The notes: generated by a model not told the origin, from the sequence alone. A DNA stretch of 64,000 nt from Chloroflexota bacterium (GCA_965238265.1 OZ250185.1:1949255-2013254), one strand, 5' to 3'. Numbered from the stretch's first letter, positions 11,369 to 59,165 are shown. A program made the numbers and translations.

Positions 11369-11386
11369 TTTCCCCAAGTAAGCGCT

Positions 11387-11420
11387 GGCCTCTGCGATAG
11401 ATAGCAGAGGCCGTTTGATT
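11387..11420 (+). terminator. rho-independent terminator-like hairpin after tRNA-Phe
   Basis: A 9-bp stem (ggcctctgc ... gcagaggcc) with loop gatagata is followed by gtttgatt. Confidence 0.6.
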
Positions 11421-14600: not shown

Positions 14601-14915
14601 GAGACTCAGGCCGCCGAGCGTTTCAACCGGGAAATCGCTCGTCTTGAGGCATGGTTCGACTATCGGGAACGCGCCGCCAGTGACCGTGTGGAGGCTACCA
14701 GCGCTACCCTGAATCGACTCCGCGAGAGCGATGACGAGTCGCAGCGCCAAATTTTGCCCGTCTGGGAGGCTAATCTCCGACGGGACAAGGAACTGCTCGG
14801 TAATCTCACCGAAGAGCGTCGCCGCCGGATTGATGAAGCTGAGAGATATCGTCACCCTCAAGTCGATTGGGTGCTGAAGTCGCTGGGCCGCATTGAGGTG
14901 GTGGCTCCCAACTAA
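11653..14915 (+). pseudogene. rapA: RapA/HepA-like SNF2-family ATPase (RNA-polymerase-associated protein homologue). It is disrupted by an in-frame TGA at 11998-12000 and by a frameshift near 13886-13893. It lies in a lower-GC islet directly 3' of tRNA-Phe.
   Basis: ORF 11653..12000 has a tandem Tudor/KOW-like N-terminal domain (VGALVQWTGAKTYGVVTNIDDGVIHVRWDE) comparable to the E. coli RapA N-terminal domain. After the TGA the same frame continues into the ATPase core: [37 protein letters not shown] (compare E. coli RapA [37 protein letters not shown]), a DEAH box (LVIVDEAHHARS) and helicase-C motifs (QRIGRVDRIGQ). The C-terminal 330 aa continue in a different frame (ORF 13917..14915) after the homopolymeric run gggaaaag. 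Confidence 0.8.
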
Positions 14916-21225: not shown

Positions 21226-21267
21226 GTTGCCTCGCTACCTGTAGCCCGGATTCTGCATACGATGGCC

Positions 21268-22260
21268 CTAGGGAGCCGGACGACGGGCGTACTCGGAGTC
21301 GCGCGTCGCCCGAAACCAGGCAATCGTCCCCGCCAGCCCCTCGCGCAGCGGCACCAGCGGCTCCCAGCCCAACACCGTGCGTGCCCTGGTGATGTCCGGA
21401 CAGCGCCGGCCGGGGTCGTCCCGCCGCACCGGATCGGTTTCCTGGACCGGCTGCTGCGTGATTGGGGACCGCGATCCGGCCACCTCGACCACCAGCGCCG
21501 CAAACTTGCCTATTGTCCACTCGTCCGGGTTGCCGAGGTTGAATACCTCGCCGCGCGCTGCGGCCGCGGGCGCCGCGATGACGCGCAGAATGCCGGCGGC
21601 CAAATCGGTGACGTAGCAGAAGCTCCGCGTCTGTTCGCCGGTGCCGATCACGACAAGTGGCTCACCGGCGAGGGCGCTGCAGATGAAACTTGGCACGACG
21701 CGACCATCGTAGTGGCGCGTGCGTGGCCCGTAGGTATTGAAAATCCGCACAATCCGCACATCCAGATCGTAGCGACGGCCATAGGCCATCGTCAGCGCCT
21801 CACCGTACCGCTTGCTCTCGTCATAGCAGCTACGTAGGCCGATGGGGTTCACGTGGCCCCAATAGGTCTCGCGCTGCGGATGCTCTTGGGGATCGCCATA
21901 GACCTCCGAGGTCGAGGCAAAGAGGAACCGACTGCCATGCTGCTGCGCGAACGCGAGCAGGTGCTCGGTGCCGCGCGCGTTGACCGCCATGATCTCCAGG
22001 CTCAGACGCCGGAAATCTAACGGACTGGGCGGGCTGGCCAGATGGAGAATCCAGTCCATGGGGGGCAGGTCAGCGGGCAACGCCTGGCTGACATCGGCAT
22101 TGACGAACGTAAAGCCGGGGCGGTCGGTCAGCGCGGCCACGCTCGCGCGAAAGCCGGTGAGCAGATTGTCCAGACACCAGACCTCGTGCTCGTCGGCAAG
22201 CAGCACCTCACAGACGTGGGAGCCAATCATACCGGCGCCACCGACGACGAGCACACGCAT
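21268..22260 (-). CDS. UDP-glucuronate decarboxylase (UDP-xylose synthase) / NAD-dependent epimerase-dehydratase
   Basis: MRVLVVGGAGMIGSHVCEVLL is followed by the YxxxK catalytic motif (YDESKRYGEAL), and the length is typical of UXS. Confidence 0.85.
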   Translation of the reverse strand: MRVLVVGGAGMIGSHVCEVLLADEHEVWCLDNLLTGFRASVAALTDRPGFTFVNADVSQALPADLPPMDWILHLASPPSPLDFRRLSLEIMAVNARGTEHLLAFAQQHGSRFLFASTSEVYGDPQEHPQRETYWGHVNPIGLRSCYDESKRYGEALTMAYGRRYDLDVRIVRIFNTYGPRTRHYDGRVVPSFICSALAGEPLVVIGTGEQTRSFCYVTDLAAGILRVIAAPAAAARGEVFNLGNPDEWTIGKFAALVVEVAGSRSPITQQPVQETDPVRRDDPGRRCPDITRARTVLGWEPLVPLREGLAGTIAWFRATRDSEYARRPAP

Positions 22261-22262
22261 TG

Positions 22263-25200: not shown

Positions 25201-25586
25201 CGTATGCCCTGGCTCCGGGCCGTGTCTACGATGTGGTCGTACTTGTCCCAGGTGGAGCGGCCGGTCGTCTCGTGCGTGTATTGCCCCTTGCGCCGTTCCA
25301 GATCAGTCCAGAGGAATTCCTGGCGTATCCAGCGGACGCCCGCCTCCTGAGCCAGTCGCAATGATCGCGTCACTCCCTTGGGCGTTTCCAGCTCCAGGCG
25401 CGTATTGACGCCCAACTGCGCCACGGCGCGGTCCGCAATCGGCGCAGCCGGCAGGCCATAGCCGACCCCATCCTCGACAATGAGATGATGCAGCAGCAGC
25501 CCACCCGCAGCGCTGGCCAGCGCCAGTAACCAGAGGACGCCGGCGCTGAAGCCGACTACCCGCATACGCCGGCGATATTGACCCAC
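22263..25586 (-). CDS. large fusion protein: signal-anchor, then a clan GH-A (GH5-like) glycoside hydrolase domain, a beta-sandwich region, and a C-terminal polytopic Wzy/O-antigen-ligase-like membrane domain
   Basis: The GH5 signature THIQIWNEPNLNHEWG lies in the N-terminal 400 aa. The C-terminal roughly 500 aa have more than ten TM helices and a Wzy_C-like segment (FSFSRGAWLASAVGVGVVLIG ... HPHNLVLDYWLRGGIMG). Confidence 0.7.
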   Translation of the reverse strand: MGQYRRRMRVVGFSAGVLWLLALASAAGGLLLHHLIVEDGVGYGLPAAPIADRAVAQLGVNTRLELETPKGVTRSLRLAQEAGVRWIRQEFLWTDLERRKGQYTHETTGRSTWDKYDHIVDTARSQGIRIIARLDRPPEWARPPDSSGTHPPLNYLDYGDFVYDFVTRYRGRITHIQIWNEPNLNHEWGDRPVDPAAYVELLRSAYRRAKEADPTIRVLAAGLAPTLERGDRGLDDLAFLERMYEHGAKAHFDIASVMAYGLWTDADDHRIAPERTNFPRLVLTRRLMEAWGDGSKPIWVSEFGWNALPPGWQGRPSPWGSFSVAEQRRSTVRALARARDEWPFVGVMALWVLRYPGVHPDDPTGFFALLDTDWRPRPLYDSLQAATAVAALGLGWHEESHADILIEGAGQYTFDPAASGQRYWEGPIAGTTLRLTFRGTDVVLLGPLGPGRGIAEVTIDGVPTLANRLPAGPASRALLDQYRPETLSQQRIPIATGLPDRLHELELVVTGRQAADSLGPAIGVDAILIGRARPLGPYLLTGGVWCAALIALLWRVRGRLRRSLAPLLAPLLGQPGMVGDTDAFVGAQHAVPLHPLTGPLAALVAHAPAGLLRRWWSTDRGPLAMALATATAMLLLPDGKAGLACAGSIGLLVLWRPRTGVYLLILSLPWHAHAVQLGLGRVTLTELLWITTAAAVVARAVWHERWPRWPRAFGGPAVLLIVAATVATVGAQVPAVALRELRVVVLEPALLLVLIVTLFRQRGDPARLAWALVAAGIVAGAAALALGAAGQRLIEAEGVVRLAGLSSSPNHLALFLGRLLPLAVALALLHTDSGRADTPGRHKPMGAKIVQSWRLGVAILSTGIIGAALLFSFSRGAWLASAVGVGVVLIGLLAIRGNTWRRHLARRLRDAAGRWTLIVSVVAIVIVLTLGIGLATRVERLSSVGDPLGGTMALRLQLWQAALRMGLDHPLFGVGPDGFLYAYPAYREGVAWREPFVSHPHNLVLDYWLRGGIMGIVALGWLLAAGGRSVWLLLRKDGVAYRSQLLALGLAGSLTNFVVHGLVDNSYFLPDLAYVCWASAGLLVVLMQHTPPTTQATVPPPDAPEST

Positions 25587-39321: not shown

Positions 39322-39716
39322 CGCAGGCAGCTGCGCCGGTCCCTTTGGTCGGCCGCAAGACGATGGAGGAGAAATCTCATTGCTGCGCTATTGGTGAGCA
39401 CCAGCGATGGTACCACGCTCCAACCCTAACGGCCACGTCAAAGTCGGCCGGCCAAGACGAAGCACTGTTTATTGCCAGCACGCGGCGCTGACTGGGGTAG
39501 GTTTTTCAGCGGGAGGCGGGTTGGGCCTACCCCCCGGCCCCCTCTCCACACGAAAACCTATACCTGTCAACTATGGTCTCCCCGCTCCGCAGGGGGACGG
39601 TCTCTTCTCTTTTCCATTTGATTGTGCAGGCCTGGCACGTCACTGTCGTGTACGCTCAGAGTCGGAGCGGCTGGCCCGCGGCACGAAACCGGCCGCCGAA
39701 GGCACAGGAAGCACCG

Positions 39717-40418
39717 ATGCCGGACACCTCCCCCGAGGCTGACCAGTGGATGCAGTCTGCATCGGTACAGGCCGGGCTGGCCGCGCTGCGCCGCCACGTT
39801 GAAGGCCACCGGCGCGGCCGCATTTTTGCCCTCTCTGCGCCATCGGGAGCTGGCAAGGACAGTGTGATCGAGCGGCTGAAGCAGGACAAGGTGGCAATCA
39901 GCTATACGTTGCACACGACCACGCGCCGGCCACGGCCCGATGAGATTGACGGCGAGCACTATCGCTTTATCACGCCGGATGAGTTCTCTGCCGAGCGCGA
40001 CCGTGGCGGTTTCCTGGAGTGGGCAGCCTACCTCGACAGTTGCTATGGCACGCCGCGTGCGCCGGTGGAGCAGGCGCTGGGGCATGGGGAGGATGTGCTG
40101 GTCAAGCCCGATGTCCAGGGCGCGATGCAAATTCATGCCCTGTATCCTGATGCCGTCCTGATTTTTTTGGCGCCGCCGACGACCGCTGTGCTGGTCTCCC
40201 GGCTGTCCGGCCGCGGCACCGAGAGCCACGCGGAGCGGCGGCGCCGCGTCGAACGATCACTGGCGGAGATTGCTCATATCCCGCAGTACGACTATCTGGT
40301 CATCAACCACCATGGACGGCTCGACGACACCGTGGCCAAGGTCAAGGCCATTATCGTCGCCGAGCAACAGCGCGTGCGCGCAGTGCCGCACCTCCCGGCC
40401 GGCCGCCGCGCGAGGTAG
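39717..40418 (+). CDS. gmk: guanylate kinase
   Basis: The P-loop (SAPSGAGKDSV) is present and the family core continues through the TTRRPRPDEIDGEHYRFI segment. Start was taken at the internal ATG (MPDTSP); the track ORF begins upstream inside a repeat region. Confidence 0.9.
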   Translation: MPDTSPEADQWMQSASVQAGLAALRRHVEGHRRGRIFALSAPSGAGKDSVIERLKQDKVAISYTLHTTTRRPRPDEIDGEHYRFITPDEFSAERDRGGFLEWAAYLDSCYGTPRAPVEQALGHGEDVLVKPDVQGAMQIHALYPDAVLIFLAPPTTAVLVSRLSGRGTESHAERRRRVERSLAEIAHIPQYDYLVINHHGRLDDTVAKVKAIIVAEQQRVRAVPHLPAGRRAR

Positions 40419-40633: not shown

Positions 40634-41911
40634 GTGGCAATCCTAGCCATCAACGGCGGTAATCCGGTCCGCACAGCGCCCTGGACACGCTGGCCCCGCG
40701 CCGACGAGCGTGCCCTGGAGTTGGTCACTGCGGTCCTACGCAGCGGGCACTTGAGCGACGATGGGCCGATGGAGCGGCAGTTCGCAGCCGACTTCGCGTC
40801 CTTCTGCATGGCGGCGCACGGGGTCTGCGTGATGAACGGCACCGTCTCGCTGCGCGTAGCGCTCGAAGCCGCGGGCGTGCAGGCGAGAGACGAAGTGATC
40901 GTGCCCGGCCTCACCTGGGTCGCCACGGCCGGCGCGGCCGTGGACATCAACGCCGTCCCGATCTTTGTTGACGTTGATCCCGAGAGCCTGTGCATGGACC
41001 CCGCGGCGGCGGCGGCAGCGATCACGGAACGCACGCGGGCGATCATTCCCGTCCATCTCTCCTGCGCCGTCGCCGACATGGATGCCTTGCTGGAACTGTG
41101 TTGTGGGCACAACAGGTTGCGCCCCGACGATGAGCGGATTTGGCTGATTGAAGATTGCGCCCACAGTCACGGGGCACAGTGGCGCCGGCCCGATGGCAGC
41201 GTGCGGGGCACGGGTTCGATGGGGGACTTCGGCTCGTTCAGCTTCCAGTCCAGCAAGGCCCTTTCGACCGGTGACGGGGGCATTATCCTGACCTCGGACG
41301 AGGAGTTAGCCGACCGCTGCTGGTCGCTTCGCAATGTCGGCCGGCCGCGCCGCCCCGGCCAGACACCGGGCTACGGGAACAACTACCGGCTCACCGAATT
41401 ACAAGCGGCAGTGCTGCGAGCGGGCCTCGAACGGCTGCCGGCCGAGATGGCGCACCGACAGCGGAACGCCGACTATCTCACCCGCGGTCTAGCCGACCTG
41501 CCGGGCCTCCGGTCCCTCGCCCGCGACCCGCGGCTGGTCCGTCAAGCATTCTACGGCTACATCATTCGCTATGACGCCGAGGTGTTCTGTGGCGTGCCCA
41601 AGGCGACGTTCCTGAGCGCGCTCAAGGCCGAGGGCATCTTCTGCGCCCCCGGCTACCTGCCGGTCTACGAGCAAGAGCTGTGGCAGATTGACCGCCGCCG
41701 CTTTCCCTTTGCCAGTCGGTACGATCCGGCAGCGGACGATTACGACCCACCGCACTGCCCGGTAGCGGAGCAAGCGTCGCACAACGAGGTCATCGCGCTA
41801 CCGCAGCCATTGCTGCTCGGCTCACAGCCTGATATGGATGATGTGCTCGCGGCCCTGACCAAGCTGGTCGAGCACCGTGCGGAGCTGGTCAGCGCAGCGG
41901 CGGCGGCCTAA
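40634..41911 (+). CDS. DegT/DnrJ/EryC1/StrS-family PLP-dependent sugar aminotransferase
   Basis: The fold-type I aminotransferase core is present with a PLP-lysine region (FSFQSSKALSTGDGG). The gene has a GTG start preceded by GGAGG. Confidence 0.85.
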   Translation: MAILAINGGNPVRTAPWTRWPRADERALELVTAVLRSGHLSDDGPMERQFAADFASFCMAAHGVCVMNGTVSLRVALEAAGVQARDEVIVPGLTWVATAGAAVDINAVPIFVDVDPESLCMDPAAAAAAITERTRAIIPVHLSCAVADMDALLELCCGHNRLRPDDERIWLIEDCAHSHGAQWRRPDGSVRGTGSMGDFGSFSFQSSKALSTGDGGIILTSDEELADRCWSLRNVGRPRRPGQTPGYGNNYRLTELQAAVLRAGLERLPAEMAHRQRNADYLTRGLADLPGLRSLARDPRLVRQAFYGYIIRYDAEVFCGVPKATFLSALKAEGIFCAPGYLPVYEQELWQIDRRRFPFASRYDPAADDYDPPHCPVAEQASHNEVIALPQPLLLGSQPDMDDVLAALTKLVEHRAELVSAAAAA

Positions 41912-42018
41912 CCGCCGGCCACTTTGCTCCTCACATCCCGGCCCCTCTCCACTTGTGGAGAGGGGGAGTCCGCTGCAAGCGGGCGGGGTGAGGAGCGCCC
42001 CGACACGGCACGACGCCG

Positions 42019-44376
42019 ATGACAGCCACGAACGACCAAGGAACGCCTCCGGGTGCCGTACCCGAGTTCGAGGCAGTCGCGGTGGCCGTGGCCGCGTCCT
42101 GGTCCCACGACCCGCCGCGCTTCACCTATACCGTGCCGGAGCACCTGCAAGGGCGCCTCCGGCCGGGCCATCTCGTGACGGTGCCGTTCGGGGAGCGTAC
42201 CACCTACGGCCTCGTCACCGCGCCCGTGACGGAGCGGCCCGACTTCGCGCTCCGCGACGTAGAGCGCCTGCTGCACCCGGCACCGCTCGTATCCCCTACC
42301 TACCTGGCCCTGGCCAACTGGCTAGCAGACACCTACGTTGCGCCCGCGTTCAGTGCCGCCCGGCTCATGCTACCGCCCGGCTTGGAAACCTGGCTGCATC
42401 GCTTGCTTGATGTTGAAAACGGTAAAGCCTCGCGCCTCGTGCTGCTGCCCGATGTGGAAACCTGGCTGCATCGGGTCTTGATGGTCACTGACCAAGCCCC
42501 CGACCAGGCGAGCAATCGCTGGCGCGAGGCACACCGTCGCTGGTTCGAGTTACTGCGCCGCGGCCGTCCGGTGCGGTGGCAGCGGGCCTGCGCCGTTGTC
42601 GGCAGTGCGGCTGCGCGCCGCCTGTACCGTCACTGGGCCGAGCGCGGCTGGCTAGTCAGCACATACGAAGTTGTCCTCCCATCGCTACTCGACGATAGCC
42701 TCGACCGGCGAGCGAGCGGCGAGATGACTGCCGCGGCCCCCTTCCCGGTCATGCCAAAGGGCGATAGCCACGAGGTCAGCGTGCTCCACGCCGCGCTGCC
42801 GCAGACCCGGTTCGTGTACTACCGGACGCTGATTCGCAGCTGTGTCGAAGCTGGGCAGCAGGCCCTCTTGCTCGTCCCGGACCGCCGGCAGATCACCCCG
42901 GCGCTCGACCGGCTTCAACTCGACGATCTCCGCGTAGCAACCTGGCATGGGCAGCAAGGGCAGAAGGAGCGCTTGGAGCACTGGGCGCGTGCCCAGTCCG
43001 GGACACTCGACCTCGTTGTAGGGCTGCGGTCGGCGCTCTTCGCACCTTTGTCGCGGCTTGGTGTCATCATCGTCGAGCAGGAGCATGACGACTCCTACGC
43101 CTACAAGAGCGAATCGCCGCGTTACCGCGCTTCGACGGTAGCCGTAGAGCTAGGCCGGCTGACCGGCGCCCGCGTCGTCCTGGGGAGTGCCACCCCGGAT
43201 GCTGCCACCTACTTGCAGGGGCGCCGGGGGGTGTGGACGCTCGACCAGCCGCCGGAAAGGGACACACCGCGGTCTGTCGAGATCGTTGACCTGCGCCGCG
43301 AGCGCACGGTAGGCCGGCGCGAGCTGTTGAGCCGCGCGTTGCACCAGGCGCTCGGCGCAACGCTGTCGTCCGGCGAACGCGCCATCCTCCTGCTGACCCG
43401 CCGCGGGGCCGCCCACTCGCTGCGCTGCCGCGATTGCGCTTACGTCCTGCGCTGTCCGCGTTGCGCGACGCCGGCGGCGGTCCACGGGGAGCGTTCGCCC
43501 GCCAGGGGGCGTCTGCTATGCCACTACTGCGGTTCGGCCTTGCAAATCCCGGCCCTCTGTCCCCAGTGTGGCGGTACGCGGCTGCGGGCGCAGGGGCCGG
43601 GCACCCAAGGGCTGGAGACCGAGCTACGGACCCTGTTTCCGCGCACGACGGTCTTTCGCTGGGATGCCGATACCGTCTGGCCGCCAGGTGGGCCGGCTCA
43701 GGTATTGGCGGCCTTTGCCCGCGGGGACATTGCCGTCTTGGTCGGTACCCAGGGTCTCCTGCGGATGCCGGGCCGCGTCGCCGCGCCGCTGGTGGGGGTC
43801 GTTGACGCGGATACCGGGCTGCACCTACCCGACTTCCGCGCGGCCGAGCACGTCTTCCGCAGCCTGCTGGGCGCTGCCGCCCTAGCGGAAGGCACGAATA
43901 CCCGGCCGGGCCGGGTGCTCGTGCAGACGCGCGAGCCACAGCACTACTGCCTTCGCGCCTTCTTGCTCCCGCGGCGAGCGCCGTCCGGCCCCGGCGCTGC
44001 CCTTGACCCCGACGACCTCCGCGCTGCCTATGCCCGCTTCATGGCGGCCGACGCCGTTGATCGGCGGGAGCTGGGGTATCCGCCGTATGGCGTCTTGTGG
44101 CGGCTGCTGTATCTGCATCGGTTGGACACTACGGCCGAGCGGGAGGCGACGCGCTGCGCGACTACCCTGCGAAACGCCGCCGCGGAGCAATCTACTCCCG
44201 CTGCCGCCACAGACGAAGTGGAGGTCATCGGCCCGGCGCCAGCGTACATTCGCCGCCTGCGTGACCGCGCGCGCTGGCACGTGCTGTTGCGCGGGCCACG
44301 CCACCGGCTGGCCGAGCTAGTGGCCCACGTGCCTCGTGGCTGGACCATAGACACTGATCCGACCACCCTGCTATGA
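42019..44376 (+). CDS. priA: primosomal protein N' (PriA) homologue with degenerate ATPase motifs
   Basis: The N-terminal 3'-end-binding domain and the PriA Cys-rich zinc-binding region (CRDCAYVLRCPRCATPA ... CHYCGS ... CPQCGG) are present. The Walker A position reads LHAALPQTRF instead of GxGKT, and Walker B reads VEQEH instead of DEEH. Confidence 0.85.
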   Translation: MTATNDQGTPPGAVPEFEAVAVAVAASWSHDPPRFTYTVPEHLQGRLRPGHLVTVPFGERTTYGLVTAPVTERPDFALRDVERLLHPAPLVSPTYLALANWLADTYVAPAFSAARLMLPPGLETWLHRLLDVENGKASRLVLLPDVETWLHRVLMVTDQAPDQASNRWREAHRRWFELLRRGRPVRWQRACAVVGSAAARRLYRHWAERGWLVSTYEVVLPSLLDDSLDRRASGEMTAAAPFPVMPKGDSHEVSVLHAALPQTRFVYYRTLIRSCVEAGQQALLLVPDRRQITPALDRLQLDDLRVATWHGQQGQKERLEHWARAQSGTLDLVVGLRSALFAPLSRLGVIIVEQEHDDSYAYKSESPRYRASTVAVELGRLTGARVVLGSATPDAATYLQGRRGVWTLDQPPERDTPRSVEIVDLRRERTVGRRELLSRALHQALGATLSSGERAILLLTRRGAAHSLRCRDCAYVLRCPRCATPAAVHGERSPARGRLLCHYCGSALQIPALCPQCGGTRLRAQGPGTQGLETELRTLFPRTTVFRWDADTVWPPGGPAQVLAAFARGDIAVLVGTQGLLRMPGRVAAPLVGVVDADTGLHLPDFRAAEHVFRSLLGAAALAEGTNTRPGRVLVQTREPQHYCLRAFLLPRRAPSGPGAALDPDDLRAAYARFMAADAVDRRELGYPPYGVLWRLLYLHRLDTTAEREATRCATTLRNAAAEQSTPAAATDEVEVIGPAPAYIRRLRDRARWHVLLRGPRHRLAELVAHVPRGWTIDTDPTTLL

Positions 44377-44458
44377 TCTTCCGCGTTGCCCAGGCGACCG
44401 GGCAATGTCAACAGAGTCTAGTACCCGATCTCCCAGTGGCTAATCTAGGGCAAGCGCT

Positions 44459-45091
44459 ATGGCAATCCGACCGATCCTGAACGAAGGCCATCCACTGCTG
44501 CGCCAAAAGGCGAAAAAAGTACGCCGCATTGACCCATCTATGCGGCGCCTGGTTGACGATATGTTCGACACGATGCACGAGGCGGACGGTCTCGGTCTGG
44601 CCGCGCCGCAGGTCGGCGTGCCCTTGCGGCTCATCGTGATCGAGCATGAAGGCGAGCGCTACGTCCTGTTCAACCCGGAGATTACCCGTCAGCGTGGCAC
44701 GGTGGCTGATGATGAAGGCTGCCTGAGCCTGCCGCGGTGGTTCGGTCCGGTCGTCCGCAGCGAGCACGTCACCGTCAAGGGGCGTGACCACACGGGCAAA
44801 GCCGTCCGCCTCAAGCTGGAGGGCCTCCTGGCGCGCGCGATGCAGCACGAAGTGGACCACCTCGACGGCATGCTGTTCGTGGATCGGGTCGAGGACCGTG
44901 CCCAGCTACGCTACGTGGACCCAGCGCAGGAAACCGGCCCGCAGTCCCCGGCTACCCATGCTACCGGCGCTGCGGATGGAGTAGCCGGCGATCAGCCGCC
45001 CGCTCGCGCTTCCGAGCAGCAGGAGAGCGCCGACGACCCGGACGGCACAGCGCCCTCGGACGAGCCGGATCAGCAAGCGGCCGCGTCGTAG
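44459..45091 (+). CDS. def: peptide deformylase, with a roughly 45-aa acidic C-terminal extension
   Basis: Motif 1 (GLAAPQVG), motif 2 (EGCLSLP) and motif 3 (HEVDHLDG) are all present. Confidence 0.95.
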   Translation: MAIRPILNEGHPLLRQKAKKVRRIDPSMRRLVDDMFDTMHEADGLGLAAPQVGVPLRLIVIEHEGERYVLFNPEITRQRGTVADDEGCLSLPRWFGPVVRSEHVTVKGRDHTGKAVRLKLEGLLARAMQHEVDHLDGMLFVDRVEDRAQLRYVDPAQETGPQSPATHATGAADGVAGDQPPARASEQQESADDPDGTAPSDEPDQQAAAS

Positions 45092-45216: not shown

Positions 45217-46275
45217 GTGGGGCGGGGATGCGGCAAAGCCGTCACCGGAGGAGAAAGAAACTTGCTGACTACGGCGACACCGGCACCGCCGCCGAGCCGC
45301 CCGGCTCGGGCTGTCTTCATGGGCACGCCCGACTTCGCCGCCGTCATCTTGCGGCGCCTGCTGCAACGGCCGGACCTGGTGACGGTGGCAGCAGCGGTTA
45401 CTCAGCCGGATCGCCCGGCCGGGCGGGGACGTCGTCTTGAGCAACCGCCGGTGAAAGTGGAGGCGGCGCGCGCTGGCGTCGAGGTGGTCCAGCCCGTGAG
45501 TGTCCGCCGCCCACGGTTTGCGGAGTGGCTACAACGCTTGGCGCCCGACCTGCTGCTTGTAGCGGCGTATGGGAAGATTCTGCCGCCGGCAGTCCTGGCG
45601 ATACCGCCGCGCGGTGCGCTCAACGTGCATGCGTCGCTCTTGCCCCGCCATCGCGGTGCCTCACCGGTGAGTGCTGCCCTGCTCGCCGGCGACACAGTGA
45701 CCGGCGTCTCGCTCATGCTCATGAACGAGACGATGGATGCCGGCCCGGTCCTGGCCACGGCCGCAGAGCCGATTGCTCCCGATGACACCACCGAGACGCT
45801 GACGGCCCGGTGGTCCTCGCTGGGCGCTACGCTGCTCCTCGACACCCTCCCGCCGTGGCTTGCCGGCGCGGTGACGGCACAGCCGCAGGACAGCGGCCAA
45901 GCCACCTACTGCCGCCCCCTGCGGCGCGATGATGGCCGGCTGCTCTGGGACGAGCCGGCCGAGCACCTAGCCCGCCAGGTGCGGGCAATGATCCCGTGGC
46001 CCGGCGCCTACACCTATTGGGCCAAGCGCCAGCTCAAGGTGTGGGTGGCCCGGGCGCTCCCTATGGATGTCGACAGCCCAACGCCGCCCGTGCCCGGCAC
46101 GGTCGTCGAGCAGGGCCGCAGACCGGCGGTGGTGTGTGGCGAGGGCCTCCTAGCCCTGGACCAGGTGCAACTCGCCGGACGGTGCCGGATGGCCGCAGCA
46201 GACTTCCTCCGTGGACAGCGTGCCTTTGTCGGGGCACGGCTCTCCGCCAGCGACCCCAGCTCATTGCAGCGGTAG
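45217..46275 (+). CDS. fmt: methionyl-tRNA formyltransferase
   Basis: FMGTPDFAA is followed by the formyltransferase core (NVHASLLPRHRGASP). The true start is uncertain: the ATG at 45217 gives a 34-aa leader before FMGTP. Confidence 0.85.
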   Translation: MGRGCGKAVTGGERNLLTTATPAPPPSRPARAVFMGTPDFAAVILRRLLQRPDLVTVAAAVTQPDRPAGRGRRLEQPPVKVEAARAGVEVVQPVSVRRPRFAEWLQRLAPDLLLVAAYGKILPPAVLAIPPRGALNVHASLLPRHRGASPVSAALLAGDTVTGVSLMLMNETMDAGPVLATAAEPIAPDDTTETLTARWSSLGATLLLDTLPPWLAGAVTAQPQDSGQATYCRPLRRDDGRLLWDEPAEHLARQVRAMIPWPGAYTYWAKRQLKVWVARALPMDVDSPTPPVPGTVVEQGRRPAVVCGEGLLALDQVQLAGRCRMAAADFLRGQRAFVGARLSASDPSSLQR

Positions 46276-52102: not shown

Positions 52103-53755
52103 TCATCGCAGGGGGCTGCTCGGCCGGTAGAGCGTGTAGCCGTACACACCCTGCGGGCGCCTGACGCGCAGCATCAGCTCCCAGCCGCTAGGGGCCAGGG
52201 CACGTGACCGCTGGTCGCCCAGGTACTCTGCCTGAGCAAGGTGTAGGCCCGCGGGCGGGGCGGGGAAGGGTGGCGCCGACGAGCGCGGCAGGTCATCTTG
52301 CCAGGTAATGGGCAAGGATTCCGTGACGATCCGCATGCGTAGGCAGCTATGGCGACTACCGAGACCAACCACCGTGAGCGGTCCGTCCTCGGATAGCGTC
52401 CGGAGCGCGTCTACCATAGCGGCACACCCGACTCCGCTCTCCGGACCGGCTTGGTATTCCCACCGCTCGTTCGGGCTGACTTCGGCGTTGGCCGGGTCCA
52501 GGCTCCATCGCGTGGCCAGGAGGAGCGCTGGGGCTACCACGAGGCTGGCCGTTACCAACGCCGCGGCGACGGCCAGCGCCGGTTGGCTGGCGCGCAGACG
52601 ACGCCAGCGCTCGACGAGTTGTGGGGTGAGCGTCGCCGCCGCGACAATCCACAGCGCCACCGCCGGCCATATGGCCGGTGCTGACCCGCGACCGCCGAGC
52701 AGGTCTATGAGGCCGGCCGTCACGGTGAGGAGCGCTGCCGCTACCGCGCACCCCTTCGCGGCCGTCGTACCGCGTCGCGCGACGAAGTAGGCCCCGATCG
52801 CGAGGGCCACCCAGCCGCCAACCGGCAGATCGAATACCAGCGTCCAGGCGAGGTTCCGCGCGACGAGCAACGCCTGGAAGATGCGTAGGTAGCCCACACC
52901 GACTATCGCGGCAACCACCGCCAGGCCCGCGAGTAGCCCCAGCAGGCCGCGTCGCGCGCGCACATACCCTGCTAGGACCTCACCGAGCGTCCCAGCCCGG
53001 CTGCGCCACACAACCGCAGCAAGCAGGAGCAGCGGGATCGCCGCCGCGATAGCGCCGTGCAGCAGTCCGGCGAGCACGAGCAACGCCAGACCCGGCAGCG
53101 CGAGTAGCCATCTCGTAGGCCCACCGAACACCACTCCTATGGTGTTCGTGGGCCGACGACTTTGCCACTGATAGGCGTGTACGGCGCAGCCGACGGCGAG
53201 CACGAGAAAGAGGGTCGCAGTCGAGACCGGCAGGGCCAGGCGGTCGGCGATGACGGCCAGCGGCGCAATGGCGTAGGCATGTGCAGCGACACTGGCCGCT
53301 AGGGGGCCGGCGAGTACACGCGCAACCCACCAGCAGGCGACGATGGTCGCCAGTCCGGCGATGGCGCTGGCCAGCCGTCCACGCTCGATGGCCCCCGGCC
53401 CTACGCCGAGCAGGCGACGCCACACGACCGCCGGGCCAGAAGCTCTCGCGCCGGGGCCGTAGGTCGCCACGGCTTGCGGTGGGTCCGAAGATTGGGTATA
53501 GGCCAGGATAACAAGCTCTGATTCGCGGTGGATCGGCTCTAGGCGGTCATACAGGCCGGCGAACCGCAGGAGTCCACCAAGCAGCAAGGCCAGTCCCAGC
53601 AGGAGCGCCGGCTGCCATTGAGCCAGGCGACCCGGCAGGGCTGCATCACCTACTGCCCCAGCGGATTGTGCAGCCCCGGCGGTAGGATTGTTCACGGTGT
53701 TCTGTCGCGGTGCGGCGGCGGCTGGCACCACCTCACTATCCATCGGATTGTGCAA
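52103..53755 (-). CDS. polytopic integral membrane protein, possibly a PMT/ArnT-like (GT39/GT83-type) glycosyltransferase. Its 5' end contains tandem copies of the recurring GATTGTGCA motif.
   Basis: It has more than ten TM helices and lies immediately downstream of a secreted GH-A hydrolase. The family assignment is only by resemblance of topology. Confidence 0.4.
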   Translation of the reverse strand: MHNPMDSEVVPAAAAPRQNTVNNPTAGAAQSAGAVGDAALPGRLAQWQPALLLGLALLLGGLLRFAGLYDRLEPIHRESELVILAYTQSSDPPQAVATYGPGARASGPAVVWRRLLGVGPGAIERGRLASAIAGLATIVACWWVARVLAGPLAASVAAHAYAIAPLAVIADRLALPVSTATLFLVLAVGCAVHAYQWQSRRPTNTIGVVFGGPTRWLLALPGLALLVLAGLLHGAIAAAIPLLLLAAVVWRSRAGTLGEVLAGYVRARRGLLGLLAGLAVVAAIVGVGYLRIFQALLVARNLAWTLVFDLPVGGWVALAIGAYFVARRGTTAAKGCAVAAALLTVTAGLIDLLGGRGSAPAIWPAVALWIVAAATLTPQLVERWRRLRASQPALAVAAALVTASLVVAPALLLATRWSLDPANAEVSPNERWEYQAGPESGVGCAAMVDALRTLSEDGPLTVVGLGSRHSCLRMRIVTESLPITWQDDLPRSSAPPFPAPPAGLHLAQAEYLGDQRSRALAPSGWELMLRVRRPQGVYGYTLYRPSSPLR

Positions 53756-53770
53756 GCCGGCGTCGTCAGG

Positions 53771-56143
53771 TTAGCTTGCTGCCCGCGGGGCGGCCAATGG
53801 CGAGCCGGCAGGCACGCCCTCTTCCACCAGGATGAGCGGCGAGCCGCCGACGTAGTAGTAGCCCGGAGGGTCCCCGCCGAACAGGTCGAAGTGGCGCGAA
53901 GCGGCTGCTAGCTCAATGGACCAATACGCCCGGCCATCAACGGTGACGGGCCGGATGATCTTCGCCGCGCCGTCCTTGCTGACGAGCCAGCCATGTACGC
54001 CCACCTTGGGCACCAGCACCGTGATCGGGGTGCCGGCGCCGTTCCATAGCACGGTTGAGCGTTGGATGCCGCCGGCAATGGCACGCTCGAAGATGCCGGC
54101 GTGAACGTGCCATGTGAACCGCGGTGTGTACTGGGACCACCTCGCCACCGGATCATCGGCCCGCTCTAGCACCTCCAAGCCGCGTGGCGTGGCGTTACCC
54201 AGGAAACGGGCGACCGTCTGGAAGGCGGTGAACGCCGGCCGTTGCCGCGACGCCGCGACGTTATTCGGATCATCGTGGAAGCGCACCAGGCCCCAAAGCT
54301 CATCGAACTGCCGCCCACCAAGAGCTGGGTACCTATCGTCCTGGAGCGCGTGGAAGAACATCCGCTCGTAGCCGGCCAAGCGGCCCAACGTAAGTGCCTG
54401 GATGACGAAGGAGGCCTGCTCATCCATCGTGATGCGGAAGCCGTCATTGGCGATCTGTGTATCCCACCCCGGCACGTTGGCGTCATCGAACGGCATGGCG
54501 TTGAACTCGGCCAACCAGATGGGCTTGCCGGCGAGGCCGATGTCAGCGAGCCGCTGCGCGAAGCCGCTGCGGTTGGGCGGTAGCAACGCCACCTCGCCGC
54601 CGCCGTGTACACGATCCCACAGATCATGCGGATTCCGGTAAATGTTGAGCGCGAGGGCGTCGAAGAAGCCACCGTTCGCCGGCGCTGCCGGGTCGGCCTT
54701 GACCTGCGCCATGAACGCCGCAAACCACGGCAGCCGTTGCTCGCCGCCTTCCTGCATGTCGCGGTGGTAGCTGTACGGTGCGACGATCACCTGCGCGTTG
54801 GGATTGCCCCGCTTGGCCGCAGTGTAGGCTGTCTTCAGCAGTTGGTAGTACTGCGCTGCCGAGCCGGCAAACGTCGAGTAGATCGCATTGGGGCCGGAGG
54901 GGGGGATTTCCACTTCGTTCCAAATCGCCCAATGGTCAATCGTACCCGCACACTCGCGGGCAATTGCCGCGACAAACCGTGCCCACTTCGCCATATCGGG
55001 CACGCTATGTGTGCCGTCTGCCGGATTGGTGGCTGCGAAGTCGGGGGTGCCGATCAGCAGGCCCAGCATTTTGACGTTCGCGGCCTTCAGTCCGTCGTTG
55101 ACCCACGGACAGCCACGGATACCGCTGAAGTCGCCATCGGATCGCTCGGCGCCGGACCAGAAGATGACCGACCGGGTCCAGCCCGCGCCGCTCTGGGCCA
55201 GAAAACCGGAGGCTGCATAGCCATCGTTGACGCCAAGCCAATCGGCGCGTACTTGCGCCGCCGGGGGCGCGTGCGGCTCCGCCGCCTGCGGCGGTGGGGC
55301 CGGTGCGGCCGTAGGAGCCGGTGGCGCTGGCCTTAGCGCGACGCTGGTCGCCGCCTCCGGCTTGAGCGGCGTTGCCGCCCACGTGGGGAAGAGGCCGGCT
55401 TCCTTGGCGAGGCCCCCGCCAAGCACAATCGTCACCGTACCCGCTGCCGCCCACGGCACGTCCTGCTGCCAATACTGGAACGCGGCCCGCTGCCCGCGCA
55501 CGACGACCACGTGGCCGTAATCCTTGATCCCCATCGGGAAGCCGTGGTGGTTCAGCCATTGCGGGTTGGCCAGGAATCGCCCTTCCAGCGCTTGCCGGGC
55601 GGCGCGCATCGTCGCACTGTCGCTGGCCCGGGGCGCGAAGATCGTTGTGAGGTGATTCTCGGTGATACTGCCGGGGCCACTGAAGGGTCGTCCCTGGTCG
55701 CTGGACCAGTCAAAGCTGGACGGAATCTGCTTGAAGGTCTCCAGCCACTCGTCCCGACCGGCGGCGTGGAGCAGGTCGAAGACGTTGGCCAGGCTCATGG
55801 TGCCGGTGATGGTATTCCATTGCAGCAGTGCCCGCTGGGTGACCTGATAGGTAAACGGGCCGTCTTGGTAGGGGTGGGAAGCGGGGTAGCCCAGCGCCGC
55901 GATCCCACCGAGCGCCGTGAATTGGCTAAAACAGGGGCAGCTGGTGGTATCGCGGATGGCAAACCCAAAACCGGCCGGGTGGTCGCCGCGGGTCTGGGTG
56001 TAGAAGTGACCGTCGGCCAGGGCGAAGTCGTCACCCGCGGACTGCGCGGCAGCGGGCGCCACGGCCAGCAGTGCAGTGAGCAACAGCGCCGCCAGCAACG
56101 CTCCGACGAACGGCAGTCGGCGGACTATTCTGCCCCAAGCCAT
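53771..56143 (-). CDS. secreted clan GH-A glycoside-hydrolase-like protein (790 aa)
   Basis: A signal peptide (LLAALLLTALLAVAPAAAQSA) is present, together with the motif IDHWAIWNEVEIP, which fits the GH5 N-E-[PV] signature. Confidence 0.6.
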   Translation of the reverse strand: MAWGRIVRRLPFVGALLAALLLTALLAVAPAAAQSAGDDFALADGHFYTQTRGDHPAGFGFAIRDTTSCPCFSQFTALGGIAALGYPASHPYQDGPFTYQVTQRALLQWNTITGTMSLANVFDLLHAAGRDEWLETFKQIPSSFDWSSDQGRPFSGPGSITENHLTTIFAPRASDSATMRAARQALEGRFLANPQWLNHHGFPMGIKDYGHVVVVRGQRAAFQYWQQDVPWAAAGTVTIVLGGGLAKEAGLFPTWAATPLKPEAATSVALRPAPPAPTAAPAPPPQAAEPHAPPAAQVRADWLGVNDGYAASGFLAQSGAGWTRSVIFWSGAERSDGDFSGIRGCPWVNDGLKAANVKMLGLLIGTPDFAATNPADGTHSVPDMAKWARFVAAIARECAGTIDHWAIWNEVEIPPSGPNAIYSTFAGSAAQYYQLLKTAYTAAKRGNPNAQVIVAPYSYHRDMQEGGEQRLPWFAAFMAQVKADPAAPANGGFFDALALNIYRNPHDLWDRVHGGGEVALLPPNRSGFAQRLADIGLAGKPIWLAEFNAMPFDDANVPGWDTQIANDGFRITMDEQASFVIQALTLGRLAGYERMFFHALQDDRYPALGGRQFDELWGLVRFHDDPNNVAASRQRPAFTAFQTVARFLGNATPRGLEVLERADDPVARWSQYTPRFTWHVHAGIFERAIAGGIQRSTVLWNGAGTPITVLVPKVGVHGWLVSKDGAAKIIRPVTVDGRAYWSIELAAASRHFDLFGGDPPGYYYVGGSPLILVEEGVPAGSPLAAPRAAS

Positions 56144-56266
56144 ACAGTCTTCTCCAAAGCCCCCACCCTAACCCTCCCCCGTTGCGACAGGGGAGGGAAG
56201 CGCCGTCCCCCTGCCGCAGCGGGGGGACCATAGGGGGCCCGGCCTCTCTGCGACCGGATCACGGCA

Positions 56267-56593
56267 TCAGCGGCTAGCCGGGGGATCGAGCGGTTCGACG
56301 AAGACTTCAATCGTCCCGCCGCACGCCAAGCCGATGTCCCAGACCATATCGCGCGTAATGCCAAACTGGAGCAGCTGTGGCTGGCCGGTCCTCAGCACGT
56401 CGAGTGACACGTCAATGACGGCCGGCTCGACGCAGCCACCGCTCACCGATCCGGCAAACTCGCCGTGAGAGCCGACGGCGAGCTTGCTCCCGGTGGGTCG
56501 CGGCGCCGACCCTTGGGTGTTGACGACGGTTGCGACGGCGACGCTGTGCCCGGCTTGGCGCCAGCGCTCGATGTCGGCGAGTAGGTCACGCAT
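56267..56593 (-). CDS. XdhC/CoxI-family protein, N-terminal domain only (108 aa)
   Basis: LADIERWRQAGHSVAVATVVNTQGSAPRPTGSKLAV matches the N-terminal XdhC_CoxI domain. The Rossmann-like C-terminal domain is absent. Confidence 0.7.
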   Translation of the reverse strand: MRDLLADIERWRQAGHSVAVATVVNTQGSAPRPTGSKLAVGSHGEFAGSVSGGCVEPAVIDVSLDVLRTGQPQLLQFGITRDMVWDIGLACGGTIEVFVEPLDPPASR

Positions 56594-56716
56594 CAGTCCT
56601 CCTCATAGGTGGTACCGCCCGGCTACGGAGTAGGTTGCCCGGTAGCGGGCTGCGTTGGGCTACAGCGCCTAGTGCCCGCCTCTGGCTTGAACAGGGGTCT
56701 GCACCACTGACCTCCA

Positions 56717-58138
56717 TTAGGATTGTGCAGACCTGGCGGGCAGTGGTGAGCGGCGCCCACGTACCGTTGCCATCACCTCGCAGAGCCGGTCGAGACTTTC
56801 CAGGTTATGCGCCGGCAGGAACTCGTCAACGTAGGGCAGCGCCGCTTGCAGCCCACGGGTCAAGGGCCGGTAGCCGGGCATCCCGAGCAGCGGATTGAGC
56901 CAGAAGAGCCGGTAGCTTGCCCGCTGGAGGTAGGCCACTTCTTGCCGGAGCTGCTCCACGTCGCCACGATCCCAGCCGTCGCTGATGAGTAGTACGAGTG
57001 CGCTCCGACCGAGCACGCGCCGTGCCCAGTGGCGATTGAAGTGGCCTACTGAATCGCCTATGCGGGTACCACCGGACCAGTCGTGGACAACGTCCGATAC
57101 CGCTGCCAGCGCATCGTGAGGGCGGCGCTGGTGTAGTTGGTGCGTGATATTGGTGAGGCGGGTGCTGAACACAAACGCTTCGACCCGCGGCAATTGCTGG
57201 CGCGCAGCATGAAGGAATTGCAGCAACATGCTCGAATAGATGCTCATGGAGCCGCTGACGTCGCAGAGTAGGACGAGTGGACGCGGCTTCTCCGCACGAG
57301 CGCGTTTTTTCCAGGTGACAAGCTCCCCGCTCGTGCGTAGACTGTGCCGGATACTCCGCCGTAGGTCGAGGCGGCCCCGCACCGAGGGCCGCAGCCGGCG
57401 CGTCAAGCGCGGCGCCAGGCGCATCCCCAGCCGGGTCATCAGCTGCTGGACAACGCGCTGTTCGTGCCGATCAAGGTCGCTGAAGTCACGCCGCCGCAAG
57501 ACTTCCGCGGCACTATAGGTACCACTGCGATCCACGCCGTCAACTTCGTCGGCAGCTTCCTGCGACCCGTCCTCGCTGACGCCGTCCTCGCTCTGACCGG
57601 CAGCCTCCACCGCCAAGCGGCGCAGCTGCTCTTGCTGCTTGCTGCCAGCCGGCGTGCCGTCGGTATCGGGGTTGCTAATGTCGCCGCCCGCCTTCTTCAG
57701 CTCCGAAGTCGCTTCGCCATTGGTGGAGTCTGGGAGCGTCCCCGGATCAACGCTATAGCCCTCGGCCAACCGGGGACCAAAGAACTGGGCAAACACCAGG
57801 TCGAATCGCGCCTGGTCCTGATGTTGGGTCAGCAGGGTTACTTGCGCCGTGTGGTAGAGGTCATCCCGGCGCCGCAAGCCCGTGTGCTCGACCGCTTGCA
57901 GCAGGCTCGTGGCCTGGCCCGGCGCCACCGCCACGCCTGCCCGGTGGAGCGCACGGGCAAAGCGCACCAGATGCTTCATCAGCGCACTGCCGGCCGCCGC
58001 ACTGCCGGCTTCGAGTGCCAGGACATCGCTCGATAGCTCCGGCGGTAGGCAAGGGTGCAGTTGAATGGCAGTGGTCAGCGGTCTGTCCGGGCCACCGGCC
58101 ACCGGCCACCGGCCACTGACGTTGTGCGTTTCTGGCAT
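56717..58138 (-). CDS. VWA-domain protein (CoxE-like)
   Basis: The MIDAS motif (LLCDVSGSMS) is present and the gene is adjacent to a MoxR ATPase. Confidence 0.8.
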   Translation of the reverse strand: MPETHNVSGRWPVAGGPDRPLTTAIQLHPCLPPELSSDVLALEAGSAAAGSALMKHLVRFARALHRAGVAVAPGQATSLLQAVEHTGLRRRDDLYHTAQVTLLTQHQDQARFDLVFAQFFGPRLAEGYSVDPGTLPDSTNGEATSELKKAGGDISNPDTDGTPAGSKQQEQLRRLAVEAAGQSEDGVSEDGSQEAADEVDGVDRSGTYSAAEVLRRRDFSDLDRHEQRVVQQLMTRLGMRLAPRLTRRLRPSVRGRLDLRRSIRHSLRTSGELVTWKKRARAEKPRPLVLLCDVSGSMSIYSSMLLQFLHAARQQLPRVEAFVFSTRLTNITHQLHQRRPHDALAAVSDVVHDWSGGTRIGDSVGHFNRHWARRVLGRSALVLLISDGWDRGDVEQLRQEVAYLQRASYRLFWLNPLLGMPGYRPLTRGLQAALPYVDEFLPAHNLESLDRLCEVMATVRGRRSPLPARSAQS

Positions 58139-58139
58139 G

Positions 58140-59165
58140 TCAGCTTCCCGTGACGGCGTTGACGAGGCTCTTGAGCCGCTGGCCCCGGATATGGGCCATG
58201 TCTTCTTGGTGCTTCACCAGGGTACCGAGAGTGGCGTCGGCGTCATCGTAGCCGACCCGCCGCACGCCTAGCTCCACCAAAGCGCCGGCCCAGTCGAGTG
58301 TTTCGGCGATCCCCGGGACTTTGTACAGCTCTTCCTCGCGCAGGGCCTGGACAAACGCCGTGACCTGCCGCGCCAAGGTGTCGGCGATGTCGGGTACCCG
58401 CGTTTCCACGATGCGTAGCTCTTTCTCGAACGTGGGGTACTCGATCCAGTGATAGAGACACCGGCGCTTCAGCGCGTCGTGCAGCTCGCGCGTGCGGTTC
58501 GACGTGATAACGACACGCGGCGGCTTATCGGCGTGGATGGTGCCGATCTCCGGCACGGTGACTTGGTAGTCCGCCAGCATCTCCAGCAGGAAGGCGTCCA
58601 GCTCGTCGTCCGCCCGGTCTATCTCGTCTACCAGAAGTACCGGGGGCGCGTCGTCGGCACCGGTCTCCAGCGCCTGCAAGAGCGGTCGCCGCACCAGGAA
58701 CTCGGGGCTGAAGAGGTCCTTCAGCCGGCTCTCCTGCGCGCTCCCTTGCGCTTCCAGGAGTCGGATGTGGAGCATCTGCCGGCTGTAGTTCCATTCGTAG
58801 ACCGCCTGGTGGATATCCAGCCCCTCGTAGCATTGCAGCCGGATCAGTCGCCCTCCCGTCGCGGTAGCCAGCACCTTGGCCACCTCGGTTTTGCCAACGC
58901 CCGCTTCCCCTTCCAAGAGCAGCGGCTTGGGCAGCCGCATCGCCAGGAAGATCGCCGTGGCGAGCGCGCGGTCGGTCACGTAACGCTGGCCGGCGAGCGT
59001 ATCCTGCACCTGCTCGATGGACTCGGGCGTCGGCGGAAGGGGGGCGGAGGTGGTAGCTTGGGGCGACGTAACATCGGCTTCACTCGCATTCATGGTGGCC
59101 ACTGTACCAAATCTACACCCACTCGCCGATCCACCAGCTAGGCGCCGTTGACATTGCCCGGTCAT
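58140..59165 (-). CDS. MoxR-family AAA+ ATPase (CoxD-like)
   Basis: Walker A (GEAGVGKTEVAK) and Walker B (LLVDEIDRA) are present, and the length is about 320 aa. Confidence 0.9.
   Translation of the reverse strand: MTGQCQRRLAGGSASGCRFGTVATMNASEADVTSPQATTSAPLPPTPESIEQVQDTLAGQRYVTDRALATAIFLAMRLPKPLLLEGEAGVGKTEVAKVLATATGGRLIRLQCYEGLDIHQAVYEWNYSRQMLHIRLLEAQGSAQESRLKDLFSPEFLVRRPLLQALETGADDAPPVLLVDEIDRADDELDAFLLEMLADYQVTVPEIGTIHADKPPRVVITSNRTRELHDALKRRCLYHWIEYPTFEKELRIVETRVPDIADTLARQVTAFVQALREEELYKVPGIAETLDWAGALVELGVRRVGYDDADATLGTLVKHQEDMAHIRGQRLKSLVNAVTGS

Follow-up and report, generated by a model that had tools for sequence, protein, structure and literature searches.

ATPase-dead forms of PriA, the replication restart helicase, are known from the laboratory and from nature. 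In Escherichia coli, replacing lysine 230 by arginine (K230R) alone abolishes the ATPase of PriA (PMC5778457, PMC4504706), and the corresponding priA300 product, which is without ATPase and helicase activity, supports PriA/PriB restart (PMC5778457). K230R and K230A/D variants have no ATPase, helicase or translocase activity and still assemble primosomes and sustain PriA/PriB restart in vivo (PMC5778457, PMC13594977), and ATPase/helicase activity is regarded as dispensable for the PriA/PriB pathway (PMC13594977, PMC5778457). In nature, Deinococcus radiodurans PriA shows neither ATPase nor unwinding activity experimentally and binds single-stranded DNA (ssDNA), forks and, directly, DnaB (PMC4504706). 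A PriA pseudohelicase was noted for 17 Deinococcus-Thermus species, with motifs I and II matching poorly (PMC4504706; Lopper, Boone & Morrow 2015), and a 2018 review treated Deinococcus as the sole exception (PMC5778457); our literature search found no paper on degenerate PriA outside Deinococcus-Thermus. Here we describe a priA gene at 42019..44376 (+) of a 64,000-nucleotide stretch from a soil-type Chloroflexota bacterium (GCA_965238265.1, OZ250185.1:1949255-2013254; below, the window, from whose first letter all positions are counted), whose product keeps the PriA architecture and, from its motifs, is predicted to be ATPase- and helicase-dead.

Loss of the ATPase motifs

The ATPase motifs were examined in a MAFFT alignment of the window protein with E. 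coli K-12 PriA (NC_000913.3) and 119 database homologues, among them 103 canonical relatives and 16 clusters at 74-100% identity in which the helicase domains are gone (the clade, below). After these 16 clusters there is a sharp break to canonical PriAs at no more than 41% identity. The register at motif I is ungapped, with E. coli 222-LAGVTGSGKTEVY-234 corresponding to 256-LHAALPQTRFVYY-268 of the window protein. In this region (42769..42813, +), the invariant glutamine 21 residues before motif I is lost (Q203->H251) and motif I/Walker A reads 257-HAALPQTRF-265 in place of HGVTGSGKT. The E. coli motif 224-GVTGSGKT-231 has thus become 258-AALPQTRF-265 (G224A, T226L, G227P, S228Q, G229T, K230->R264 and T231->F265), with the loss of all three glycines, and in the AlphaFold2 (AF2) model the helix after motif I begins at P261, leaving a loop of just four residues. 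Motif Ia (42874..42900, +) is degenerate as well, reading 286-VPDRRQITP-294 instead of VPEIxLTPQ (E288D, I289R, T292I, Q294P). At Walker B, E. coli LGVIVIDEEHDSS aligns with LGVIIVEQEHDDS, and motif II (43075..43086, +) is 353-EQEH-356 instead of DEEH; both acidic residues of the D-E pair found in 103/103 canonical relatives are changed (D320->E353, E321->Q354). Degenerate motif V (577-TQGLLRMPGRVAAP-590; 43747..43788, +) stands in place of TQMxAKGLDLPxVT, with TQMxAKGLDLP turned into TQGLLRMPGRV (A543L, K544R, G545M and the following positions; M579R in most clade members). In motif VI (43870..43896, +), 618-GAAALAEGT-626 replaces QVAGRAGR (Q580G, G583A, R584L, R587T), and both arginine fingers are gone.

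Fourteen of the residues concerned (Q203, G224, G229, K230, T231, D320, E321, N426, K544, G545, Q580, G583, R584 and R587) are present in 103/103 canonical relatives, and G227 and R338, the latter in the aromatic-rich loop (ARL), in 99/103 each. All 16 clade sequences differ at every one of these sixteen invariant or near-invariant positions. With these residues kept throughout, or nearly throughout, the canonical set and changed throughout the clade, the loss cannot be put down to chance or misalignment. More broadly, the canonical relatives have 145 columns with a conservation of 95% or more; 47 of these are replaced, and the replaced ones cluster in the Q-position and motifs I, Ia, II, V and VI. 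A search for G..G.GK[ST], GK[ST], DE.H and Q..GR.GR found none of them, whether in the protein itself, in members of the clade or in the five remaining frames of 41801-44600. Pfam DEAD, Helicase_C and ResIII domains, which are seen in the canonical relatives listed, are found in none of the 16 clade clusters.

A preliminary description of the window had reported a PriA homologue with degenerate Walker A and B motifs, naming as its own counter-case a manual alignment out of register, with canonical motifs elsewhere in the protein. The ungapped alignment agrees with this description: the strings it quoted are real and correctly registered, the GKT lysine is indeed absent (and the neighbouring threonine is phenylalanine), and the E-to-Q change in Walker B is accompanied by the additional D320->E353. 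With no canonical Walker A, DExH or motif VI anywhere in the protein or in six frames, misregistration is rejected. The degeneration is also wider than had been noticed, since it includes the Q-position and motifs Ia, V and VI. Read from these six elements, the nucleotide-binding and hydrolysis site appears dismantled, and a PriA so altered could therefore not work as a conventional helicase.

Domain architecture and retained DNA-binding elements

The open reading frame (ORF) is intact and encodes a full-length PriA of 785 aa with 3' DNA-binding domain (3'BD), RecA lobes, zinc region and C-terminal domain (CTD). It scores 339.3 bits with the NCBIfam model TIGR00595 (priA; cutoff 230.35), and all scores with the lineage-specific PRK05580.x models lie under their much higher cutoffs. 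PRK05580-type models are matched at 1.6e-124, and PRK14873-type (actinobacterial) models at 1e-37 to 1e-14, far under their cutoffs; a PADLOC scan of the protein gave no match. Pfam places the 3'BD at residues 34-119 (42118..42375, +; PF17764, 3.8e-18) and the CTD at residues 689-781 (44083..44361, +; PF18074, 7.9e-9), the latter modelled with a predicted local distance difference test score (pLDDT) of 80-97. The Cys-rich region (CRR; 43426..43569, +) contains eight cysteines and matches PF18319 weakly (0.0091). A winged-helix-like (WH) region at about residues 151-217 (42469..42669, +) has no Pfam match; it was delimited by AF2 secondary structure (pLDDT 73-86) and lies between two linkers, 129-150 and 217-249, that are hypervariable and modelled with low confidence.

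The fold is that of PriA. A sequence search of the PDB matched the Klebsiella pneumoniae and E. coli PriA structures with E-values of ~1e-63 to 1e-58, the local HMMER alignment to these structures starting directly after the Walker A position. AF2, given an alignment of 49 sequences, produced a model with a mean pLDDT of 77 and a predicted template modelling score (pTM) of 0.76 that is unconfident only at linkers 1-12, 129-150, 217-249 and 652-664. Its best Foldseek match is fork-bound E. coli PriA (8FAK_H, E 8.5e-44; template modelling (TM) score 0.82 target-normalised and 0.68 query-normalised), 4NL4 (E 2.1e-42) and the remaining PriA structures are also matched, and the next fold family, Mfd, reaches just E 7e-9.

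Elements that contact DNA are largely preserved. The preliminary description had the 3'-DNA-binding N-terminus and the Cys-rich insert as kept, in agreement with the Pfam match of the former and with 8/8 CRR cysteines. The 3'BD pocket retains F35, Y37, G58 and R79 (E. coli F16, Y18, G37 and K61). The ARL (43102..43134, +), to which a role in fork-junction DNA binding has been assigned (PMC5778457, PMC5175346), is largely kept in the alignment (Y362, K363, R368, Y369), with two changes (H336->R370 and R338->S372). Motif III (S390-A391-T392; 43186..43194, +) is kept, and in motif IV (459-LTRRG-463; 43393..43407, +) the ssDNA-pore arginines R461/R462 are invariant, next to a changed N426->T460. 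Their E. coli equivalents, R427/R428, contact lagging-strand ssDNA within the PriA pore (PMC13594977, NAR 2026). The eight zinc-ligand cysteines (C470, 473, 479, 482, 501, 504, 514 and 517) align with E. coli C436, 439, 445, 448, 463, 466, 476 and 479 and are invariant in the clade. They form the pattern CXXC-Xn-CXXC-Xn-CXXC-Xn-CXXC for two zinc ions, and zinc binding is predicted on this basis. H489 is kept as well; it corresponds to the CRR-UP interface residue H455 of E. coli, which stabilises the rotated 'CRR-UP' state, in which lagging ssDNA is encircled and the following assembly step is licensed (PMC13594977).

Several further observations concern these regions. Residues ~129-249 (42403-42765), covering WH and linker, are hypervariable in the clade and in the window genome contain a short internal repeat (ETWLHRLL ... 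ETWLHRVL), and some clade members have a 19-aa insertion between the two CRR zinc knuckles. The model has a query-normalised TM of 0.68 to fork-bound 8FAK and of 0.57 to apo/ADP-bound K. pneumoniae 4NL4, structures of different modelled length. A CRR modelled in the rotated 'UP' position could explain the better fit to 8FAK, a point to which we give no weight, the target lengths being different.

Selection and domain-wise divergence

Ratios of nonsynonymous to synonymous substitution rates (dN/dS) were calculated by the Nei-Gojobori method for 28 pairs among eight orthologues, those of the window and of seven species genomes. The ratio is 0.275 for the whole gene, 0.26 for the 3'BD, 0.21 for the CRR and 0.12 for the CTD. 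RecA lobes 1 and 2, in which the ATPase motifs were lost, have ratios of 0.18 and 0.12, and the highest value, 0.40, belongs to the WH/linker region (residues 121-250; dN 0.63). The reading frame is intact in all eight of these genes as well as in a distant orthologue. The window priA is thus maintained under purifying selection and is a pseudoenzyme rather than a pseudogene; a frameshift or pseudogene is rejected, given intact ORFs in eight genomes and low dN/dS.

With E. coli as outgroup, we compared the identity of the clade with that of 46 canonical Chloroflexota PriAs. RecA lobe 1 has an identity of 0.28 to E. coli in the clade vs. 0.46 in the canonical proteins, and RecA lobe 2 of 0.33 vs. 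0.43. The CRR (0.40 in both), the 3'BD (0.28 vs. 0.32) and the CTD (0.25 vs. 0.27) differ little, so that only the ATPase lobes show excess divergence. Such a distribution is consistent with a protein that was remodelled for a time once catalysis was lost and then came under constraint again as a scaffold.

These data bear on whether the gene is a decaying, non-functional relic heading towards a pseudogene. Such a view could draw on the wholesale loss of catalytic motifs, the hypervariable WH/linker and RecA lobes more diverged than in canonical PriAs. It is largely refuted by the selection data, with a dN/dS of 0.12-0.18 in the dead lobes themselves, and by the intact 785-aa ORF in the window, the seven species genomes and a deeply diverged orthologue. 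The zinc ligands, motif IV arginines, H489 and ARL are, moreover, strictly kept in a protein whose structure is predicted confidently, and we regard decay as highly improbable.

Lineage and age of the motif loss

Orthologues with 74-87% identity are carried by seven Chloroflexota species genomes (GTDB), five of which are single chromosomes of 4.2-4.4 Mb. The nearest canonical relatives also belong to the Chloroflexota, namely to Anaerolineae, Dehalococcoidia, SAR202, Thermomicrobiales and Ktedonobacteria. From the resemblance to Deinococcus, the preliminary description had drawn a hint about the lineage of the window. The Deinococcus precedent is real (D. radiodurans; PMC4504706) and the hint is not borne out: with relatives and orthologue-bearing genomes all in the Chloroflexota, we reject an origin in, or horizontal transfer from, Deinococcus-Thermus. 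An exhaustive phmmer search of 1.84 billion representatives retrieved 19,777 PriA-like proteins, and the 150 nearest representatives, which were examined, are canonical PriAs or members of other degenerate lineages, with no Deinococcus-type sequence and no G-x-G-R-T type motif among them.

In this search the clade forms one 50% cluster, and the next match, P0121, is 45% identical and likewise degenerate (motif I EPDPERRL, motif II DAEE, motif VI HAVQLALLGD). Because so deeply diverged a protein is also degenerate, the motif loss must be old. Clade and P0121 are monophyletic in 100% of 200 neighbour-joining (NJ) bootstraps, with the motif columns in or out, and share the derived states G227P, K230R, A543L, K544R and R584L; the most parsimonious explanation is that their common ancestor lost the motifs once, long ago. 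A search seeded with P0121 found no members of this sister lineage beyond its own two-member cluster.

Further degenerate lineages are represented among the 150 nearest representatives by P0179, P0200, P0221 and P0234, each of which has lost different residues. The first three are closest to canonical PriAs; P0221 keeps GPPGSGKT, has EDEH at motif II and is without motif VI. P0234 (locus L014), from a 13-member cluster, has LAPGANAL, HEEE and HLLGRV at motifs I, II and VI and the gene order gmk-Memo-priA-BNR-fpg. In all four, the ARL is still present, as are motif IV and the 8-Cys region. PriA pseudohelicases may thus be a recurrent evolutionary outcome and the subset kept by all of them a minimal ATP-independent PriA core, a tentative generalisation to which we give slightly less than even odds. 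If it holds, the core would consist of lagging-strand ssDNA recognition gated by CRR closure, followed by helicase recruitment, and many bacteria without PriB/PriC would restart replication without PriA-driven unwinding.

Gene start and genomic neighbourhood

The start at 42019 is supported by the N-terminus MTATNDQ..., which is common to all eight orthologues; the database gene call for the identical sequence (P0001) starts 21 codons further downstream. The window has a G+C content of ~66%, and its priA sits in the classical priA-def-fmt neighbourhood. Upstream lie gmk (39573-40418, +) and a DegT-family aminotransferase gene (40634-41911, +), and downstream def (44459-45091, +) and fmt (45217-46275, +), past which a 2-oxoacid dehydrogenase operon runs on the opposite strand. 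At the orthologous loci, gmk and DegT precede priA at L003, L004, L006, L007, L008 and the distant locus L011, and def and fmt follow it at L002-L008 and L011. The full gmk-DegT-priA-def-fmt order is thus found at five loci of the clade, L002 and L005 being matched for priA and the downstream genes only. It recurs at L011, the locus of P0121, with neighbours just 44-58% identical to those of the window. Within the clade loci, priA diverges faster than most of its neighbours (74-87% vs. 82-96% identity).

As a test of orthology with canonical Chloroflexota priA, synteny gave a mixed result. The canonical gene P0286 (locus L012) has def directly next to it, which supports the orthology of the window locus; P0065, P0022 and P0294 have other neighbours and no priA-def adjacency.

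Proposed function and alternative explanations

We consider an ATP-independent scaffold for fork recognition and DnaB recruitment in replication restart the best explanation of this protein, with a probability of roughly 0.75. Architecture, motif loss, residue retention, purifying selection, age and placement were computed, and it is from these that we infer every biochemical step. The RecA-like lobes would persist as a folded, constrained DNA-binding scaffold. Abandoned forks and D-loops may be recognised by the 3'BD, which would take up the nascent leading strand by its 3' end, together with the WH region, and the ARL, motif III and the motif IV arginines could provide the surface for holding the lagging-strand template ssDNA. 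With its zinc ions bound, the CRR would close round this strand, as in the ATP-independent 'CRR-UP' state of E. coli PriA, and the closed complex could serve as a platform to which DnaB is recruited, whether by direct contact (as in D. radiodurans) or via an adaptor or loader. In E. coli, clearing of the lagging arm must precede CRR closure (PMC13594977). The window protein would have no motor with which to open a duplex lagging arm; its substrates should therefore be limited to forks on which at least ~9-11 nt of lagging-strand ssDNA are already exposed, unless another helicase does the clearing. The suggestion in the preliminary description that this PriA is no conventional helicase and acts as a scaffold is in line with the motif loss and with the priA300 and D. 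radiodurans precedents; only its remark on lineage fails, as discussed above.

Several points weigh against the scaffold model. The CRR-switch model comes from E. coli and its partner PriB, known only in a subset of Gram-negative bacteria (PMC5778457); outside the proteobacteria, PriB, PriC and DnaT occur in just a few Gram-negative bacteria (PMC5778457). The pocket for the SSB C-terminal tail (K. pneumoniae R697 and neighbours, numbered with an offset of one from E. coli; PMC6618814) is not conserved even in canonical Chloroflexota PriAs, and the E. coli pocket residues map uncleanly onto Chloroflexota PriAs of both kinds. A second, weaker nucleotide site of PriA has been proposed and was never located (PMC5778457), and ATP may, formally, still be bound by an unconventional site. 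The NJ grouping of clade and P0121 joins two fast-evolving sequences and could be inflated by long-branch attraction, a grouping for which the shared synteny argues independently. A Pfam scan of the ~45 window ORFs revealed none of DnaB, DciA/DnaC, PriB, DnaT or DnaD, and no second priA, DnaB or loader was present within the 64-kb window and the 22-kb orthologous loci, the sole scope examined.

It is the same scope that leaves room for a specialised paralogue, for example a fork-binding regulator or competitor, in a genome with a canonical PriA elsewhere. The faster divergence of priA compared to most of its neighbours would suit such a role. Against it stand the classical priA-def-fmt position and the priA-def adjacency shared with a canonical Chloroflexota priA, and, as a weak argument, none of the top 120 homologues is placed on a contig that matches in length the chromosome-scale contigs of the clade, e.g. 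the 5,181,096 bp of P0002. PriA is, furthermore, generally single-copy in bacteria, and a paralogue is in our view unlikely. Enzymatic loss often accompanies neofunctionalisation, and the protein might have been recruited to a process other than restart, such as structure-specific DNA binding in recombination or repair, or a transcription-coupled function. We found no direct support for such recruitment, which would have left the full PriA domain set, the fork-recognition residues and the genomic context unchanged. As PriA is the sole restart protein conserved across phyla (PMC5778457), its unreplaced loss would be costly, and we consider this reading decidedly unlikely.

The last alternative is that the protein remains an ATPase or helicase by way of a non-canonical site, for instance with R264 taking over from the lysine and with the E353/Q354/E355 acidic cluster. 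An arginine at the lysine position, the remaining E-Q-E-H-D-D cluster and the conservation of the replaced motifs within the clade would be compatible with this. The P-loop has, however, lost its three glycines, has a proline at G227 and is modelled as a 4-residue loop, and in E. coli PriA the K230R exchange is by itself sufficient to kill the ATPase (PMC5778457, PMC4504706). The arginine fingers, the K-G pair of motif V and the upstream glutamine are all lost too, and motifs I, II and VI of P0121 consist of entirely different residues, so that no alternative catalytic constellation is conserved; a surviving ATPase is barely credible to us.

Other features of the window

Behind a tRNA-Phe(GAA) gene at 11293-11368, the GC content falls to 0.56 (vs. 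~0.66; region 11293-14915), and this stretch has an ORF for a SNF2-family helicase (12091-14064, +), which matches the PADLOC profiles BrxHI (5.9e-102) and DrmD (2.6e-80) and has canonical GLGKT and DEAHH motifs. It is the sole canonical SF2/SNF2 helicase gene in the window. Its C-terminal end is apparently out of frame, and an overlapping ORF (13917-14915, +) weakly matches the C-terminal end of the BrxHI profile. The stretch 12091-14915 probably represents a frameshift-split BREX/DISARM-type helicase in a tRNA-adjacent island, unrelated to restart; no other defence genes were recognised near the 11293-14915 island.

On the - strand, two large ORFs without Pfam match (52103-53755, 550 aa; 53771-56143, 790 aa) adjoin genes for a VWA CoxE-like protein (56717-58138) and a MoxR/AAA_5-type ATPase (58140-59165), possibly as one operon of unassigned function (52103-59165). 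Also on this strand, the region 19699-25586 contains two O-antigen-ligase (Wzy_C) proteins, one unusually large (1107 aa; 22263-25586), which flank an NAD-dependent epimerase, with a GT4 glycosyltransferase and a GH5-like protein nearby; this suggests a cell-envelope polysaccharide cluster. Near the start of the window, two + strand ORFs without Pfam match (15-1850, 611 aa; 2692-3927, 411 aa) flank a sigma-70 region-4 protein (1988-2689), and an ABC-2 transporter pair (3933-5863) follows them.

Comparison with known PriA proteins

With canonical PriA (TIGR00595; 4NL4, 6DGD, 8FAK), the window protein shares the six domains (3'BD, WH, two RecA lobes, two-zinc-site CRR and CTD), the fold (TM 0.82 to 8FAK) and the def/fmt neighbourhood, and it differs in lacking the superfamily 2 ATPase motifs that define the helicase. 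Such proteins receive the label 'replication restart helicase PriA' from annotation pipelines, yet helicase activity is almost certainly absent from them. The protein is not of the actinobacterial type either, as its weak PRK14873 scores indicate. UniProt flags mycobacterial and streptomycete PriA as without detectable helicase domains, and if this holds, these proteins may form a further group of PriAs that degenerated in nature; our literature search found no paper describing degeneration of actinobacterial PriA.

With E. coli K230R, the window protein has in common an arginine at the Walker A lysine position. However, priA300 is a laboratory point mutant of a canonical helicase that works with the partners PriB, DnaT and DnaC, and the dead E. 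coli variant fails in the PriA/PriC pathway. The change described here is natural and ancient, extends across six motifs and occurs in an organism without known PriB or DnaT. It would thus represent a natural separation of function, in which the motor was lost and purifying selection preserved the elements (motif IV arginines, H455 and the CRR) to which recent cryo-EM and genetic studies of E. coli PriA attribute ATP-independent fork sensing. This yields a testable prediction on the essential PriA core and hints at how restart may proceed in phyla without PriB, PriC and DnaT.

The closest counterpart is Deinococcus-Thermus PriA, which likewise is full-length, has degenerate Walker A and B motifs with arginine for the lysine, and keeps its DNA-binding architecture. 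By analogy, the window protein should not hydrolyse ATP or unwind DNA and should still bind forks and recruit DnaB, and neither lineage has a known PriB or DnaT. Compared to Deinococcus-Thermus PriA as described in the published account, the loss in the window protein is more complete, with no P-loop glycine left and with the Q-position and motifs Ia, V and VI gone. It also concerns another phylum, and it appears to have occurred independently. Judged by its motifs, the Chloroflexota PriA would therefore be a second natural example of a pseudohelicase PriA next to that of Deinococcus-Thermus, of a known kind in a new phylum.

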